From Tubulanus polymorphus (lineage: Eukaryota; Animalia; Nemertea): a DNA stretch of 64,000 bases. The stretch is from positions 5,302,485 to 5,366,484 of the forward strand of contig NC_134027.1 of NCBI RefSeq assembly GCF_964204645.1, read 5' to 3'. Position numbers and translations under genes: made by a program. The notes beneath the pieces were generated by a model, which saw only the letters and a list, made by a program, of their open reading frames with translations, did no database searches and was not told where the DNA came from. Shown here in pieces: positions 2,951 to 64,000 of this stretch; positions within the stretch are counted from its first letter, which is position 1; each line of letters opens with the position of its first letter.

Positions 2951-5900
2951 ATGGATCTGAACCGCGTGATAATCATCTCAGTCGTGGGAATAGTTGCTTA
3001 TTTTACAGAAATAACTGGTAAGTTAATGGACCTACGGAAAGAATACTTTTCTTCGGGCATGTAATTAAACATAAATCGTATCAACCAAATACTGGTGTGG
3101 CATTTATAACACACATATGAATATGTATACTCTTTCATCACCCGCTTTGATGCAATCAATGCATATGTGCAAATTGAATTGGCACCAACAACATGACATC
3201 TCTTGTAAGAATATTTCGTCGAAAAAGATAAGATTCCCTAATGAAGTAAGTGACTTTTATGAAATAGATTCAAGCGTAATAGACGTGTGTTGTGATTTCG
3301 GCAAACAGTGGTATCGGAGGTCAAACAATGAATGCCCGGTGTATAATGAAATAGCAAAAATACCTGGAGTAGCCGAAACCCAGCAGAACAGTTGCAAGTA
3401 TGTTCATTTTAAGTCAAATGTGACGAGTGCGATCCCATCTTTGGGAACGATCGTCTCTAATGATAAGAACCACGTTCTACTTTGTTTAACTTTTGGTACC
3501 AACTGCAATGTTTTACGTAATCAGGTTCAAAACTAAAACAACAGTTTTGTGGATGTATCAATTGCAGATCAGTGGCGCACGTTTGTTGCTTGAAACAACT
3601 GATGCAAACACGATGTGAACAAGGAGCTGATACGGCAAAATCAGATGGAAGATGTAGGGCCACTCTTCGCACTAAAGACGGTGGTCTGATCATTAGTGTG
3701 AGTTAAATGCTATTAGGTCATATCAATAGGTTCGCATTTAGCGGAATTATACTTGTAAAGATTTCTTATAGATTCTGCTAAATTTGAACCTGAATATACT
3801 TGTAGAAATATTGTCACAATAAATCACAACCATTGCAAAAAGTAAGGAGTATAACATCGTACAACAAGTTTTAACATTGTATTGCGTTGTTGGAATATCA
3901 CATTCCTCCCATGCTTTGACTCATTTTTCTTTGGAAAATGAATTCCGATTGTCAATGCTTCATTTCAAGGAATGCTGCCATTGCTGTAAAGTAGGACTGG
4001 CAGCGAAAAGGGCTGGTCTTTATTGTTCACCGTTACTGGCACCATTGGGGAAAATGTGTGACCAATCGTTCCGAGCATGTTGTGGAGATTCTGCACTTGA
4101 CTTGACAACCGTTGCCCCTCCAAGTAAGTATCAGTTATGGGCTTTATGTGCGATCCAATTAATGGACAAAATGTCCGTCATGTTAATTTTCTCGGTCGAC
4201 GTCTATTTTTGAAATGTAGTAATCTTTTATTTCATTTTGTAGCATTAGCACCCGGTGATATGGACGAATGTAACTTATTCAAAGGGCAACTATGTCAGCA
4301 CAAGTGTATAAATACACCGGCTTCTTATCGCTGCGAATGTAACGAAGGATTTCAATTAAATATCGACGGCATGACGTGTCGTGCAAATGCGCCAGAGAAG
4401 GAAGAAGATAATACGATCATCATTCCCGGCTCGTGTATAGACAATAATCCTTGTGGACATCATTGCGTACAAGTTACCCATAACACAGTGAAATGCTCGT
4501 GTCGAAACGGATATATTCAAGAAGTGACCGCTTGTATTGGTAAGAGCACCGAAATAACGATATAGAATGATTAAATCAACTTTAATTCCAGATTGAAGTG
4601 GTATATGTAATGTTTATTTAGATATTGATGAGTGCGCATCTGATTCGCATCAGTGTCCTCCGGATCAGGTTTGTCACAATACCCCAGGAGCTTACATTTG
4701 CAGACCGACCGTCAACCCTGGATTGAATCAATGTCCTGAAGGCTACACGTTTAATCATGGTACTGGACAGTGTGAATCGACTGTACCCGCTCAGTGCCCA
4801 ACTGGTTTTGCTTTAGTAAATGGAAGATGCGTAAGGTCTGCTCATGTAAACTGCCCAACGGGTACCACATTGAACGAAGCTCAAGGAAACTGCGAAGGTG
4901 ATATAATCAAAGTTTGAATCCAATAAAAGTACCTCAGAATCCAATAGAAATATTTTACATATTACACGTGTCTATATGTACTTTTAGATGTTGACGAATG
5001 TACAACTGATCAGCACAGTTGTACCAAACAACGCCAAACATGTCGTAATACTATGGGTAGTTACGTCTGTCAGTGTACCAGAGGATTCGTGCACAGTTCT
5101 TTAACCCAACAATGCGAAGGTACTGGGAAAAAACCTTTTTAGACAAAGAACTCCACAAGGAATAGGGCATTTTGGAAATAACCAATAATCGTGATATTTT
5201 TGGAATTTTCAGACATCAATGAATGCGCATTGAACCAAGCAGATTGTGTCCAAGGGCAGGAATGTGAGAATACTGTAGGCTCATACGTTTGTACTCGGGC
5301 AACTAACTGTGGCACCGGTTATACCCTTGATCAGGCGACCCAGGAATGCCAAGGTACATTTGTAAGCCTACATACAATCAACATGGTCTAACACATCATT
5401 TTACCTCGACCAAAATACACCTAAATGTTTTTTCCTGCACCGGGCGTGAAATTCTATTGCAGATAATGACGAATGTGCTTTGGGAACGCATAATTGCGGT
5501 AGGGCGTTCACTTGTCGAAATATCCCCGGATCATTCAGGTGTGTGAGGAAGGAATGTCCTCAGGGATATAAACTAGATTTTTCAACTGGAATCTGTGAAC
5601 GAATCATTTGCGAAACGGGATACAAACCTAACAGAATCGGGCAGTGTATAGGTGTGTTAATTGTCCAATTTCAGAAATGAGTAACCCGATCGAAATGTAT
5701 GAGCAATTTCGTCTGTTTATAACTACTGTACTTTACTCTCATATTTCAGACATCGATGAATGTAACGAACCAAGAAACCCTTGTAGTCGGAACCAGATAT
5801 GCGTTAACACGGATGGTTCGTACAAATGTAAAAACCTCATCACTTGTGGAACTGGTTATGAGCTCAATGACGCGGGAAATCGATGCATCGGTTTGTAGAC

Positions 5901-52477: not shown

Positions 52478-53136
52478 TATTCATTAACAACCCTGCAAAA
52501 TAAATCATACGTTACATAAAAACAGTGTTAGGTAAGAAAACAATCGGAATAAATTTAAATGAAGTTTGAGAGATATAGTTCAAAATTAGGTGAAATAAAG
52601 TACTATTAAATTGAGAATTGAATTGAGGTTGGACTGCTGGCTAAAAAAAATCCACTGGGCGAGCAGCCGTCTAGTTTTTGGTACTTACCACTAATTCTAA
52701 TTCGAACCAGTAACATAGAAAGAGGGTCAGAATCTTAAACTGTACAAAGTTTGGTTTGTTTTAGCACAACTCGACAATAATAAAATCAATCACACAAATC
52801 CAATCAACCACAAGAATCGCCACCATAAACAATTCAATTCAATATATCTCAAGGTCGTCGCGCCTTTCGTAAATTTGAACTTCTACGAGACCCACAAACT
52901 TCACTTTTCCTTTATTTCTGATGACGACGCTCGATTTATTAGCGTAACGTAAAATAAGTTTCGGTAGGTCACAGTACTTCTTATCAGATCATTAAATCAA
53001 TCTAATTAATAAAATAGCCAGCAGTGACTGACTCTAAATAAGTTTGTTTTTTTGTGAAACAAAATGGCTGCTTTTTCAACTGCATGTAAAATTGAAATCT
53101 GTTTAGTTTTTGTAACTTTCAGGAACAGCCGCAGTA

Positions 53137-54600
53137 ATGAATGGTTGCGTTATCAAGAACAGTCCAATCGCTGTTGACTTTTGGATAGTCCGGAAACTAC
53201 CAGCGCATATTCGATTTTTCTTCTTGAGCCATGCGCATGGCGATCATACAAGCGGCCTACGATCGTCTTGGTCGAACAAAATTTACTGTTCAGCGACTAC
53301 CGCAAAAATTGTGCGTCACAAGTATGATATCGATGAAAAATACCTCCATCCACTATCGGTCGGAGAAAGTCATATTATTCGTATCAATGATAAACCAATT
53401 GAGACAATGACAGTTTCTTTGATCGATGCGAATCACTGCCCCGGGGCGGTCATGTTTTTATTCGATGCATACTTTGGTCGTGTTTTATATACCGGTGATT
53501 TTCGATATACTGAAGCAATGTTTGGAGTTGACAGTCCATTGAGTAGCTCTCCGCAAATTGACACGCTATATTTGGATAATACGTACAACGATATCAAGTG
53601 TAAATTTCCGAAACGTTCTGTGGCGAAACGTGAAGTTTTGAAGTTGGTAAATGAGCATTCAAATTCGCGACGTGTTATTGCTATGAATGATATCGGCAAA
53701 GAGGATCTCATCGAGGAAATTGCCAAGCAGACAAATGAAAGGATTCATATTGCTGCTCATCGGTACGAGCTCTATCAAGCTATAGATTTACCGGATATAT
53801 TTACGATCGATGAATTTTATCATTGCGTTAGTTTAGTGCCAAAATGGAAAGTAAGCGTAAAAGCAATAGAAAACTGGAATCGTGAACAACGCACAATTGT
53901 AATTTATCCTACCGCATTGTTTGAAGGCTTAGATTGCAATCTGTTTTCAAAATGTTCAGAATTCGTTCATATTGTTGCATTCTCAGATCATAGCTCGTAC
54001 GATGAACTTCATCAATTTGTCCAACGCGTAAAACCCAAGGAAATAATACCAATCGTAAATTATGAAAAGTCAGTTTACGGAGTGGACTGTAGACAACGCG
54101 CTAATACGGATTGTTTCAAACAGTATTTGGATCCTCGACCGCAAAGAGAATTCTTTACACCGGCATTCATGTACGAACCGCAAGTCCGAATTAGTGTCCA
54201 ACAGCAAAATACCAAGAAGACATTGATGAAAGTCAAAATGAGGGGCAAACGACGATCACATCCACCGAAAGGAATTGTATACGGCACTCCAGAGAAGATT
54301 CCTCAAACTTGTCTTACAGTTTCAATTAATACTCCTGACAAAGTTCCTGTTGTTCTGGATCATGAATCAGTTGCTGATCGGCACATCACTCCACCGCCAA
54401 GAGTTAAAGTCAATATACAAACATTTTTTAAAGGTAGTAAAATTGACCGAATCAAATCTGTAAATGATGACAATTTCATGGACCCTGCCGAGAGCAAAGC
54501 ACCGACTCTTATTTCTAAAATCGATGAGTTGGTACCATTCATTGTATCTGAACCAACAATTATTAAGCATTATGAATCACTGTGCTTACTGAGGAAATAA
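53137..54600 (+). CDS. DCLRE1B: 5' exonuclease Apollo / SNM1B (MBL plus beta-CASP), single coding exon
   Basis: MNGCVIKNSPIAVDFW, FFLSHAHGDHTSGL (HxHxDH), DANHCPGAVMFLF, LYTGDFRY, LYLDNTY, FSDHSSYDEL. Confidence 0.92.
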   Translation: MNGCVIKNSPIAVDFWIVRKLPAHIRFFFLSHAHGDHTSGLRSSWSNKIYCSATTAKIVRHKYDIDEKYLHPLSVGESHIIRINDKPIETMTVSLIDANHCPGAVMFLFDAYFGRVLYTGDFRYTEAMFGVDSPLSSSPQIDTLYLDNTYNDIKCKFPKRSVAKREVLKLVNEHSNSRRVIAMNDIGKEDLIEEIAKQTNERIHIAAHRYELYQAIDLPDIFTIDEFYHCVSLVPKWKVSVKAIENWNREQRTIVIYPTALFEGLDCNLFSKCSEFVHIVAFSDHSSYDELHQFVQRVKPKEIIPIVNYEKSVYGVDCRQRANTDCFKQYLDPRPQREFFTPAFMYEPQVRISVQQQNTKKTLMKVKMRGKRRSHPPKGIVYGTPEKIPQTCLTVSINTPDKVPVVLDHESVADRHITPPPRVKVNIQTFFKGSKIDRIKSVNDDNFMDPAESKAPTLISKIDELVPFIVSEPTIIKHYESLCLLRK

Positions 54601-57702: not shown

Positions 57703-60472
57703 CTAAGCTGCCACTTTCAAAAGATAATCGTTGCAATTGACTTTGTCACACAAATTGGTATTGCAGCTGTCTTTCACTGGCATATTGCAGAATTCACAGT
57801 TTGGAGGACAAACAGGCGTGGTCAACTCTAGACCATTTGACAACCAGGTATCAATGACCGCGTCCACAAACCTAGAATCGAGTGAGAACATTTAAACATT
57901 TGATCTTGATGAAAAGTTGATTGTAATCCTATGGTAGGTACAGAGTCTCAGTTACTTACTTATTCATCATTTCAAATGAATGATGAGGCGATGGAGCCAA
58001 GCGAAGACGTTCTTCACCAAAAGCAACAGTCGGATAATTAATAGCTTGCACGTAGATACCGAACTTATCCATCAGATCATTCGATAGCTTTGTACTCAAT
58101 GCAGGATCACCAACCTGTGTGTATATATATAAAGCTATGTTAAGTTCTACCCATTGTCTGAGGGCCGGGGCATTGTTGCATTAACAATATATTGCTGATT
58201 ACTTACATGAATTGGAATTATATGACTGGGGCAGTGAATGACAGGAATTCCAACGTCCAACAGTCGTGCTCGAATGTACTTCACATTTAGCTGCTGTAGA
58301 CGTCGCAGCTCTTTTCCTGTTTCACCTTTCAAAATCTACAAATCATCAATACATTGATTTTCAGTTGAAAATTGTTAATTAATTTCTCTGGATAGTCACT
58401 ACGCCCGTCCAGCGTTTAAACATACCCGAACAGATGCTAATGCACCGTACAAAACAGTTGGTGGCAACGAAGTGGTAAAAATGAATCCAGAACAGTAACT
58501 TCTCAACATATCAATCAAAGCCGCTGATCCTGCTATGTAACCTCCTATGTTACCGAAAGCCTTACCTAGTGATAAGAAAAGAGACGCCATAAACAATCTA
58601 TTTAACATACATCGTTAGTAAAGTCAATTTTCAAATTACATACCAAGCGTTCCTGAAATGATATCCATTTGATCTAATAAGCCATCACGTTCACCAATAC
58701 CAGCTCCGGTTTCACCATACATACCAACAGCATGCACCTCATCTATGAATGTAATGGCTCCGTATTTATGAGATACGTCCAACATCTCTTTCAATGGGCA
58801 GATCATGCCTATAATACAAGAAAATCAATTTGTTTCATTCCGTCTCGATATTCAAAACGAATTTCATGAATGAAACGCACCGGTCATAGAATGAACTGTC
58901 TCAAAGGCAACTATTTTCGGCACATCTACATCAACTTTCTGCAACATCTCTTCCAGATGAACTGGATCGTTATGCTTGAAAATATGCTTGGGAACGTTAC
59001 TGCTTCGAATCCCTTGAATCATTGATGCGTGATTCCCAGCATCAGAGAAAATATGGCATCCTGTAACGTTATTAAGACAATATTCATACATACAATTATG
59101 ACCGTTGCAACCAATTGAAAGATAGATGCTAGATTTCAAGCTGAAAAACACTCACCAGGAAGGGATTTAGCCATTGTATGAAGAGTTGTATCATTAGCAA
59201 CATAACATGAAGTGAAAAGCAGAGCCGCTTCTTTCTGATGAAGATCAGCTAACTCACGTTCTAACTCCTCATGCATCGGCGTGTTACCCGAAATATTTCT
59301 TGTTCCACCCGATCCTGAACCATGCTTATTCACTGCTTCCCTGAAAATGTAAAAGGGTTTTATTATCTAACTGTAAATTGAACATTCTCTAAACGCAATG
59401 GTGTCAAATGACGTCAAACAACTATGGCAATGGGAATGAGTCCATGGTGATATCTTTACTTACACAACAGCTTCTTTAACAGCGGGATGCCAACTCATAC
59501 CAAGGTAGTCATTACTACACCACACTGAAATATCCTTCGTTTTGCCAGAATGCTCCTCAGCAAATGGGAAACGACTGGCATCACGTTTTACTTTCTTGAA
59601 CACACGGTAAGTATGATCCTTCTTCTTCAGGTCGATTTTATGCTGGAAAAACTTATCGTAATCAAAAATTCCAGATTCGCCACCACTGAATCCACTGCCA
59701 CCATCCCCCTTCTTTATGAAATCGAGAGGTATTGGTGGAGGTACAGAAGCGGAGGACTGTTGACCTGTAACTGCTCCTGAAAACAGACAGAATACAGTTA
59801 ACAATACGGTCAAACGAAATATACCGGTAATCAAAATTTTACAAAAAGCAAACCTGTCATATCAACTTGATTATCAAGCGCTTTGGTCCCTAGCTCTACA
59901 TTGTTCCCGGAAACTGGGCAAGCCACAGATTCATCTACAGGTTAGAATAAAGAAGGCAATTTATGCAAAATTCTTTTAGGTTACCTCGATTTTTACTCAA
60001 AATAGAAATGAAATGTTCATAACGCAAGCGCCTTAGGGACGTAACTATCAAATGAAAATCATTGAGGTTATTCTGAATTTGTAACTCAGAATAAACTAGT
60101 TTGTTGGCGGATTTACTTGTTACTTTATCCAAAGAAGATTTCACAGTAACATCATCAACAACAGTAGTCACTTTCATTTTGTCGGATAGAAATGGACATT
60201 TCCCAGACTGGTCCTTTTCAGCTGTAATGTATAAAATGATGATATCAAATCAGTGAAAATCTTCCCTAAAACAAACATATTTTCCAAAAAACATAGGCCT
60301 AACTCATTAAAATACCTTGCAGATTTGGAGAACTATCCGTCACGTATGAAGCATATTTGACCATATGCCCCATAATTGGACATTGGTCAACGTATTTCAT
60401 CACCGCTGTAGCATGTTGTCTCAGCATCGGCTTTGGGACAACATTTAGAAACGGGCATTTCAATACATTCAT
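57703..60472 (-). CDS. ALAS: 5-aminolevulinate synthase, mitochondrial; non-coding exon 1 at 63911 to at least 63990
   Basis: MNVLKCPFL...DQCPIM...GKCPFL (heme regulatory motifs), [48 protein letters not shown] (PLP lysine), and C-terminal CxxC. Confidence 0.97.
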
Positions 60473-60492
60473 TTTAAATCCTACAAAGAGAC

Positions 60493-61014
60493 AAAGATGA
60501 ACCAGTCTTTCCAGATAAAGATATCTTCAATGCACCAAATTCAATTGTATGACAGAAAGATCTTTGGTCAAGTATTGTTGTGGCATTAACAGAGATAACA
60601 TAATTATAGTAAGTCAATGAGGGTTCAATTGAGATCATTTACCATTCTAATCTATAAAATAGTAAATCACCTCTGCAGATATCACAGATTTCACTCAACA
60701 TCAGACAGTTCATTTCTAGTGCAGTATAAAAAAAGACAAATCAATAATTTAAAAAAAGAAAATTAGTTTAAAGATGAACCAGTCTTTTATATATCTTCAA
60801 TGCACCAGATTCAATTGTATGACAGAAAGATCTTTGGTCATGTATTGTTGTGGCATTAACTGAGAGAACATAATTATAGTAAGTGAATGAGGGTTCAATT
60901 GAGATCATTTACCATTCTAACCTATAAAATAGTAAATCACCTCTGCAGCTATCACAGATTTCACTCAATATCAGACAGTTCATTTCTAGTGCAGTAACAA
61001 AAAGACATCAATAA
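60493..61014. repeat. Tandem duplication of a unit of about 250-280 bp in ALAS intron 1
   Basis: About 60493-60748 and 60771-61014 are near-identical by eye. Confidence 0.9.
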
Positions 61015-62996
61015 TCAACCAAAAAAAAAAAGTTTCTACAAAATATCAATACAGAATAGATCCTTTTCTATAGGGAGGCCTGCCCATCAAACATTATCAA
61101 CAATTTTGTAACAACCTAAAAATCCTATATGAGGCAAATAGTACCTACCACAAAACTGATTCCAGACGATATAATGTCAGTTAATCAACCTATAGATCTA
61201 TAAACTAATGAATAGACTACTAGCAGGCCTATTAGAAACAGTCACCCCTAAATGCAATCTAAACTTATAATGACACATGAACTAATTTTGAACTTGCTAA
61301 CAAAAATATGTTTGTTAACGAAAATATATTTGTTGAGTCAAGCATAAGACACTAAGATTAATACAATTTTCAGCTCACAGAAGTTTCCACCAAAAACCTA
61401 AGCAAAAATAGTCTTTTCTTCAACAACTCTTCAGATGATATCTTTTTGAACATATTCTATTTCATTTCATAGCCCATACTCATAATCATAAAAAGCGTTA
61501 TGTGCAAGTTTTCTGTTGCTGTATGAATGTTGCAGCAGAACAGTATGAAATGTTTATTCTCAAAGGCAGATGTTCCCTATATTTCTTACATCCAAGATTT
61601 TGCTATAGGCTGCCACCTTTGTTTATGAATAGTAGTTAGATAGAAACTTCCACCCAGACAAATCTGTAGAATAAGTTCATGGATATCTTTCAAAATGATC
61701 ATTACTAGATATTTTGCCCAAAATACCAGAGAAGTTCAAGTGTCTGGTCACCTCAGATCTCATTTGGCTATTAGCATTTCTATACATGTATCATTCAAGT
61801 GGAAAAATCTTACGTTCTTATGGTCTGATCTGAGTTTAGACTATACAATTCATAGCATACGTTGGACAATTTCTAGGGTTAGAGAAGAGCGAATGTAGTA
61901 CAGTACAAAAATGGGTCACATTGTCTGTAACACCACAGACAGGTTACTGACTACAATCCCATTTGATAACAAATGTGCTACCCCTAAATAGACCAAAAAT
62001 TTGTTTGTTCGGCTTTACGTCGTTCAGATCTTGGTTTCCCAAAAGACTAATTGGATTATTCATTCGACCTGATGGCCTTTGAAGTGTTGCGCGCACGCAC
62101 ACTGTAAGCAGCCAGCATTCATTTCAGGTTCATTTTCTGAACCTTTGAATAAGCACAACTTTTGAATACAAAATAGTATGGTACTTGTATGAAAAATATG
62201 TTCAATAGAACAAAATATGTTAGGCCTACCCCTAAATAGACCAAAAATTTACGTTCCTATTTTCTGAACTTTGAATAAGAAATACTCACAAAATCTTCCT
62301 ATTGAATTCACTGAACCTTTGAATACAATAATAGTACAGTTCTTTTATGGAAAATGTGTTCAATAGAATCATTCACGATGGTTTAACATAATTCATGACA
62401 TTTGAATATCAGGATTATTTTATGATGTGCCCAAACTACTCGTATATACTTAAGGGAAATCATTCGAGAATGAATGATTGCAGTTAAAATCAAATTATTT
62501 GTTACTATATCAAAGCTCAAAAAGCCAGCTTAGTATAATAATAATTCATACAAAAATAGCAAAATGAATACAGGCATATGGTGCTGTCTGGCAAGAGCGC
62601 TAGATATTAGGGGCATGCCTCGCGTCTCATATGCAACACACAAATGCATACTGAACGTGCACAGTTGCACGTACCGTTAACTAGCAATATTTTCTGAATA
62701 TAAGTATCCAGGGATATGACGAAGAACACAAAAGACATGTCCCAGTAAGCCGGTCTATTTAAAAAACAAATTGAGGTTCAATCAGAAAACAACACTTTTT
62801 GTTTTAACTGCATCTACCCCTAAATAGATAGATAATGATGTCTGCTCGGATATGACTGACATCCCCAGTGGCCTAAATAAAACCTACTTATTAGTCCTGA
62901 TATTGAAAACAACATAATAATAATACCAACAAATCCCAGGGTCCTAGACAGAGTATAAAAATAAGACATAAAACGGAAGGAAGCTATCTACCTTCC

Positions 62997-63445
62997 TTTC
63001 AACCTGACTTAAGAGCATACCGGGTGGTCTAGCTTGGTCAGTTTTGATGGTACATACCTGATAAAAGTGTCATTAGGGCCAGAAAGGACTGGCAGTTGAC
63101 ATAATACATTGTCTTTTAATCCATTTTAGAATATATTGAAGGATATCAAAAAAGTATGCATTGAAAGGGGTTAATGAGAGGAAAAGAGACTCCATGGTTT
63201 GAAAGTTTAACAATATGTTTCCAATGCCTACCAACCGAAGTTTGGTGTGTAGGCATGAAAACATATTGTTAAAGCGGTGAAGTGAAGCCTTTTTGGATAT
63301 CCTTCAATACAGTTTCAAATGGATTAAATAATGATGTTTTAAGTCGACTACCGTCCTTTCTGGTCCTAATAAGACCTTTATCAGGTATGCACTACCAAAA
63401 ATGACTGAGCTAGGCGACCTGATGTGCTCTCAAGTCAAGTTGAAA
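62997..63445. mobile_element. Diverged MITE with about 100-bp inverted arms in ALAS intron 1
   Basis: About 62997-63100 is the imperfect reverse complement of about 63343-63445. Confidence 0.7.
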
Positions 63446-63960
63446 TAGACATTACCAGATTTTAACCACAGCATAATCCTAGTTGTCGCTCTGCTAAACA
63501 ATGCGGCCAATCCTCTAGAATAGTTGTGTAAGTATCGTTATAGTTTTCATGCTTATATTTGATAAGTTACTATCGTTACTATAGAAACCATATGCACTAC
63601 TTATTGATGAGAAAAATTGATTGTTAATAATCAAAAGGAATCACCGAAATAAATTGGGACCAGAACTGAGACTGACCATGTCCATATGTAGTTAGTTACC
63701 TAATCGTTGGTGGTAAGCTTTTTATAATCGGATGAGCTTATACCCTGTGGTTTGTGAAAATATCCGATCGTGAAACTAAACCACAGTCAGGTTACTGACT
63801 ACTAAGTACTATTAGTATTAGTCCATATGCTGACAAAAATGATTAAAACTGACAATTGATACAAATACAAGGAATTTGACAGTTTTTTTGTACCAATAAA
63901 TCAAGCCTACCTTTTGAAGTCAAGACTTAGAGGCTGTCGTTTTTACAGAGGAGCAGAGGA

Positions 63961-63990
63961 GCGTGTACCCTTCACTGAGAGCGACACTGC
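63961..63990 (-). promoter_or_regulatory. Iron-responsive element (IRE) in the ALAS 5' UTR
   Basis: Minus strand reads GC A GUGU C GCUCU CAGUGA AGGGU ACAC GC: CAGUGN loop, 5-bp upper stem, unpaired C and paired lower stem. Confidence 0.85.
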
Positions 63991-64000
63991 AATGAGGCCT

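Follow-up and report, generated by a model that had tools for sequence, protein, structure and literature searches.

A canonical iron-responsive element predicted at the front of the ALAS mRNA of Tubulanus polymorphus

The ALAS mRNA of Tubulanus polymorphus, which we take to be a nemertean and hence a lophotrochozoan protostome, very probably carries at its front a canonical iron-responsive element (IRE) that likely lets IRP1, whose binding we infer, block ALAS translation at low iron. The element occupies 63961..63990 on the minus strand of the window, the 64,000-nucleotide stretch of DNA analysed here, and was identified by its sequence, its fold, a SIREs-style scan, and its conservation in a second ALAS mRNA (L020). 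A sequence-only reading had claimed this fold, including an upper stem with two G-U pairs, and both the sequence and the minimum-energy fold bear it out. What makes the element interesting is its protostome host, which was not visible to that reader from the letters.

From the base upward, the hairpin consists of two G-C pairs, an A bulge, a four-pair lower stem, a C bulge, a five-pair upper stem, and the loop. The bulged C (C8) is located at 63983 above the lower stem, the upper stem is formed by 63982–63978 with 63971–63967, and the loop CAGUGA spans 63977–63972. The pairs of the upper stem are G-U, C-G, U-G, C-G, and U-A, giving two G-U wobbles. The minimum-energy fold of 63993–63958 is this hairpin, with an energy of −9.9 kcal/mol. 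Folded as part of the spliced leader, the upper stem has pair probabilities of 0.63–0.73 at 37 °C and 0.86–0.94 at 15 °C, and the two G-C pairs at the base are weak (0.27 and 0.08).

The hairpin passed the SIREs-style scan with zero mismatch and two G-U pairs, the latter being the upper limit allowed by SIREs. The scan used the published rules for motifs 1 and 2 plus G8, recoded here rather than run on the SIREs server, and in this form the SIREs check proposed along with the sequence-only reading gave a positive answer. Judged by the definition in SIREs and PMC8466369, the loop has the C14-G18 cross-loop pair, A15-G16-U17, and the form CAGUGH; the bulged C8 lies five pairs under the loop; and n07-n25 is a U-A pair with no G at n25, within a stem that has the maximum of two wobbles. 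Position 19 is A, which is permitted by CAGWGH but less preferred than U or C; A is also present at this position in the Ciona ALAS IRE and has a published frequency of 0.16 (6 of 38) among the classic IREs (PMC8466369). Overall, the geometry agrees with four of the five IRE features given in PMC8466369 as well as with the SIREs rules. No other hairpin on either strand of the 64-kb window combines C8 with complete pairing in the upper stem, and a looser version of the scan added two imperfect G8 matches on the opposite strand.

The hairpin lies in ALAS exon 1 (63911..63993, minus strand), a non-coding exon without ATG that is 83 nt long as far as the contig reaches (84 letters in run X4 and 48 in run X5). 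Contigs from four of the six listed runs (X3, X4, X5, and X6) were compared with the window. Those of runs X4 and X5, which come from one sample, join 63911 to 60480 and skip 11 introns, on which the RNA nature of these two runs is based, as none of the listed runs is annotated as RNA; runs X3 and X6 are unspliced and look like DNA. Intron 1 (60481..63910, minus strand; 3430 nt, GT-AG) is accordingly absent from the contigs of X4 and X5 and retained in those of X3 and X6. It is followed by exon 2 (60316..60480, minus strand), which has 8 untranslated bases, the ATG at 60472, and the start of the mitochondrial presequence (Preseq_ALAS, PF09029). The coding region (57703..60472, minus strand) comprises 11 coding exons for 592 amino acids with matches to PF00155 and PF09029, and the joined exons are identical to the database protein P0078. 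In run X4, a single contig extends from 63993–63911 across the junction to 60480 and then through all coding exons, so that the IRE falls, in sense orientation, within the 5′ UTR of the mature ALAS mRNA. The ATG-free segment, the donor at 63911, and the acceptor at 60480, 8 nt before the ATG, had been predicted from the letters, and the contigs of both X4 and X5 join exactly there. No alternative letter is listed within the IRE in the runs covering it (X3, X4, and X6, representing two samples). The gene is single-copy, with one match in the genome; the nearest other named relatives of the protein are from molluscs and annelids, and its presequence contains three Cys-Pro motifs at residues 5–9, 30–34, and 60–64.

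The run X4 contig starts at 63993, three bases ahead of the hairpin, and the run X5 contig ends at 63957, 4 nt short of it. Position 63993 is also the A of TCATTG (63990..63995, minus strand), an initiator-like motif by our presumed form of the initiator consensus, and it is a likely transcription start. If so, the leader is about 91 nt long and the IRE is at +4 to +33, 58 nt ahead of the AUG. Contig ends cannot prove starts, but the transcript probably begins inside the window near 63993, and not beyond it as the sequence-only reading had considered, because the ATG of a neighbouring head-to-head PHD-finger gene is 132 nt upstream of 63993 and allows only a short space in which a cap could lie further out. 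This neighbour, presumably PHF8/KDM7-like, runs from L004:2125 onward on the plus strand, 125 nt past the window end, with JmjC-like exons further along. Between the two genes there is a TATCGAT motif (L004:2048-2042), which we take to be DRE-like.

Three ALAS isoforms are present in the database, two of which have N-terminal extensions encoded within intron 1. A possible alternative exon at 60671..60715 (minus strand) would add the 17 residues of isoform X1 and is likely a cassette because a pyrimidine-rich TAG acceptor precedes it; another at 63456..63490 (minus strand) would add MLWLKSGFK of isoform X2, either as a cassette or as an alternative first exon. The splice context of both extensions suggests cassette exons, and no joint for either exon was found among the 15 of 24 contig joints listed. 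The 5′ exons implied by these isoforms could bypass the IRE. The end of intron 1 also contains a tandem duplication of approximately 270 nt (window approximately 61010–60520), the second copy of which encodes the isoform X1 extension; an acceptor, an ATG, and a donor resembling those of the second are present in the first copy. A dispersed repeat of approximately 100 nt lies at 63700–63805 in the same intron and is matched at no fewer than 42 other places in the genome. Elsewhere in the window, a DNA-repair metallo-beta-lactamase (DRMBL; 53116–54600, plus strand) has an unbroken frame of 494 amino acids amid an intron-rich region.

Conservation was examined by scanning metagenome contigs for an ALAS motif, which yielded 27 loci: 7 intron-free, mRNA-like contigs with a leader and 20 genomic pieces. 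One mRNA-like contig, L020, has a canonical IRE in which all upper-stem pairs are Watson-Crick. It shares 20 of 22 IRE bases with Tubulanus, and both differences convert a G-U pair into A-U so that pairing is kept. The two ALAS proteins are 79% identical, and L020 is sister to Tubulanus ALAS with an SH-aLRT of 100 in a 68-row tree from a quick IQ-TREE search, for which unnamed proteins of up to 520 aa, four named proteins of lesser length, two isoforms, and three locus duplicates were omitted and one long protein was trimmed to 600 aa. Fourfold sites are equal at 68 of 197 positions (27% expected at random), which is near saturation, and the 3′ UTRs cannot be aligned; the IRE is the sole significant match between the 5′ leaders. 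The distance between the L020 element and the 5′ end of its contig is at least 54 nt. These comparisons argue for an IRE conserved with its pairing in an orthologue, as seen in two sequences (one of the 27 loci and one of the 7 mRNA-like contigs).

No IRE, even with G8 allowed, was found in the leaders (61–379 nt) of the other six mRNA-like contigs, three of which belong to an annelid clade, two to an arthropod clade, and one to a long branch, nor in any of the 20 genomic pieces. The 5′ UTR comparison proposed with the sequence-only reading thus gave one clear case of retention and six leaders without the element. Most genomic pieces stop short of the start codon or first exon and therefore say little, and the negatives from the mRNA-like contigs are weakened because contigs readily lose a hairpin so close to the cap, as in the run X5 contig that ends 4 nt short of it. 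As a whole, this is a result against wide retention in protostomes, weakened by truncation. A near-match in the annelid-clade leader of L026, where CAGUGA is in an imperfect hairpin approximately 25 nt before the first ATG, was rejected for failing the IRE pairing rules; it is possibly an eroded element or a product of chance.

How often such a hairpin arises by chance was estimated with 20 Mb of simulated window-like DNA. The core, defined as C8, a stem with at most two G-U pairs, and the loop, occurred 38 times, corresponding to 0.24 expected per window and approximately 2e-4 per 92-nt leader, and the core with a four-pair lower stem did not occur. On these numbers the core alone is unremarkable in 64 kb and its location within the ALAS leader is the rare part. 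Folding energy was not better than that of shuffled sequences for the ALAS IRE (z −1.09) or for a control IRE of Tubulanus ferritin (z −1.00), so IREs are not told apart from shuffles by fold z-scores. The Rfam check suggested with the sequence-only reading came back negative: with IRE_I (RF00037) and IRE_II, no match was found at the ALAS IRE at E up to 10 under all settings tried, and the gathering cut-off was not reached. Since the same models also missed the L020 IRE and the ferritin control, this negative is uninformative. A genome search with RF00037 gave 2 weak matches among 82 scored of approximately 93,000 candidates and recovered neither the ALAS nor the ferritin IRE.

The stem was then compared by eye with those of the classic IREs in Table S1 of PMC8466369 at 12 positions (n07, n09–13, and n20–25). 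At 9 of these 12 the Tubulanus ALAS IRE equals the ALAS IREs of human, cattle, and Ciona, a count that was repeated against the arms these three have in common; the figure is 5 for aconitase, 4 for ferroportin, and at most 3 for the others. In an enumeration of random valid stems, which ignores possible biases in stem composition, the probability of reaching 9 is 0.006 and that of reaching 7, the by-eye value for L020, is 0.05. All differences between the chordate and Tubulanus stems preserve pairing. At n09-n24, the pair is G-C in chordates, G-U in Tubulanus, and A-U in L020, and at n11-n22 it is C-G, U-G, and U-A, respectively. The 9/12 match, the kept pairing, and these two paths with Tubulanus midway favour descent over convergence for the stem likeness, as far as a few sequences can tell. 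The vertebrate ALAS2 IREs (human, cattle, and zebrafish; PMC8466369 Table S1) share with the Tubulanus element the enzyme family, the 5′ leader, C8, the five-pair stem, the CAGUG loop, and probably a position near the cap; they differ in having one G-U pair rather than two and lying approximately 30 nt rather than 58 nt from the AUG, and the Tubulanus gene, in which the IRE is predicted, is a single, unduplicated protostome gene. The Ciona ALAS IRE (PMC8466369 Table S1), a 5′ IRE in a single ALAS gene, has a core that is equal at 16 of 19 positions by eye, including A19. The ferritin IRE of Tubulanus itself has C8, a five-pair stem, the CAGUGA loop, and a 5′ leader location in common with the ALAS IRE, but because the stems are equal at just 3 of 12 positions by eye, the latter does not look copied from it.

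The genome appears to contain the protein partner. Of two aconitase-family loci, the one on contig C12 best matches IRP1, and the other looks like mitochondrial aconitase, with no IRE found in the 20 kb around it. Compared by stretches, the C12 gene has TTDHISPAG, ARGTF, SSRDW, GPKRP, and HLRQ, which points to an IRP with RNA-contact stretches; the numbering of the contact residues in them, other than S371, K379, and R269, is presumed. It is the only IRP-type gene found. At the IRE-contact position of mammalian Asn685, it has Ser (L052:6993-7187, minus strand), a substitution reported in sponges too (PMC7034838). One of three ferritin genes (L050, C11) has a C8 IRE with a CAGUGA loop (L050:3690-3650, minus strand, loop at 3671), in contrast to the ferritin IREs of annelids, brachiopods, and arthropods, which have G8 (PMC8466369); a TATA-like motif lies upstream of it. 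In the 10 kb around each of the other two ferritin genes (L049 and L051), no strict IRE was found. Seven globin matches in the genome show only that heme proteins exist.

IRP1 responds to iron through an Fe-S cluster switch: with iron it is aconitase and releases the IRE. A complex of IRP1 with an IRE near the cap blocks loading of the small ribosomal subunit. In its iron-free form, IRP1 contacts C8 and the loop bases AGU, and translation is repressed when the IRE bound in this way is a 5′ one (PMC2896125; PMC8466369). In Tubulanus at low iron, IRP1 without its Fe-S cluster would bind C8 and the AGU loop of the ALAS IRE, and the cap-near complex would stop the small ribosomal subunit from loading on the ALAS mRNA; with iron present, IRP1 would become aconitase and let go of the IRE, and ALAS would be made. 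Porphyrin synthesis would be held back while no iron is available for insertion, and by analogy with known IREs, Tubulanus likely makes heme more slowly under iron shortage. The three Cys-Pro motifs of the presequence may add heme feedback on ALAS import, in which case a single ALAS gene would combine controls split in mammals between ALAS2 and ALAS1.

Two other explanations were weighed. The IRE may be real but weak or vestigial, such that iron has little effect on ALAS. Poor binding by IRP1 would fit the two G-U pairs that Tubulanus has where L020 has A-U, and weak binders may not regulate (PMC8466369); however, a U-G upper-stem pair is also found in chordate ALAS IREs, and both changes in L020 keep pairing. 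The same would hold if most ALAS came from transcripts lacking exon 1, as the three database isoforms with different N-termini could imply, but the spliced contigs show no leader other than exon 1 to exon 2, and we consider this explanation unlikely. It is more improbable still that the 22 conserved bases act at the DNA level as a promoter-proximal element of a promoter shared by ALAS and the PHD-finger gene, or match by chance, the hairpin being incidental. Although the element lies a short way downstream of an initiator-like motif, where two head-to-head genes share a tight promoter, its counterpart in L020 is well inside the contig rather than at +4, and the two sequences differ at paired positions with pairing kept. 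Likewise, the non-significant z-score and the chance expectation for a whole window would be compatible with coincidence, but the expectation for a 92-nt leader is far lower, and the orthologous chordate gene carries an IRE.

The reading of the hairpin as a functional IRE of ALAS has to be placed against earlier surveys. Piccinelli and Samuelsson (2007) are said to have found ALAS IREs confined to chordates, and Duncan et al. (1999) reportedly included some protostome ALAS mRNAs among those sequenced. Tunicate and sea-urchin ALAS IREs have since been published and the IRE has been proposed to be older than the ALAS1/ALAS2 split (PMC3904948), and the Ciona ALAS IRE counts among the classic IREs compiled for reference (PMC8466369 Table S1). 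The question raised by the sequence-only reading, whether the ALAS IRE predates that split, is hence already answered in print. Its statement that ALAS1 lacks an IRE holds for mammals and not for all vertebrates, as an IRE is predicted in three of four teleost ALAS1 leaders (PMC3904948). In published surveys, the solid ALAS IREs are from deuterostomes: those of Ciona and sea urchin are invertebrate, 5′, and of high quality (PMC3904948 Table S3), whereas Tubulanus is a lophotrochozoan. Elsewhere there are medium-quality SIREs predictions in single species, namely honey bee and Nematostella, one of them from genomic DNA (PMC3904948); the Tubulanus element, by contrast, is canonical, present in a spliced contig, and kept in a second species. 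Our literature search brought up no published ALAS IRE from any nemertean, mollusc, or annelid, with a mollusc entry possible in the supplement of PMC7850002, a chiton genome paper that screened mollusc transcripts with SIREs and whose main text does not contain "aminolevulin".

The mechanism itself is textbook, and the new part is a well-supported lophotrochozoan ALAS IRE, so that what is gained is a dating on the tree and not new biology. With a canonical, spliced-in, conserved lophotrochozoan element whose stem is chordate-like and not ferritin-like, it becomes testable whether ALAS adopted its IRE once in early bilaterians or several times by convergence. We lean, by a modest degree, toward one element inherited from the protostome-deuterostome ancestor, kept in nemerteans and lost in many protostomes, with Tubulanus retaining, as G-U pairs, the middle steps of two compensatory paths. 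If this is true, iron control of heme synthesis is far older than both blood cells and the duplication of the gene in vertebrates.
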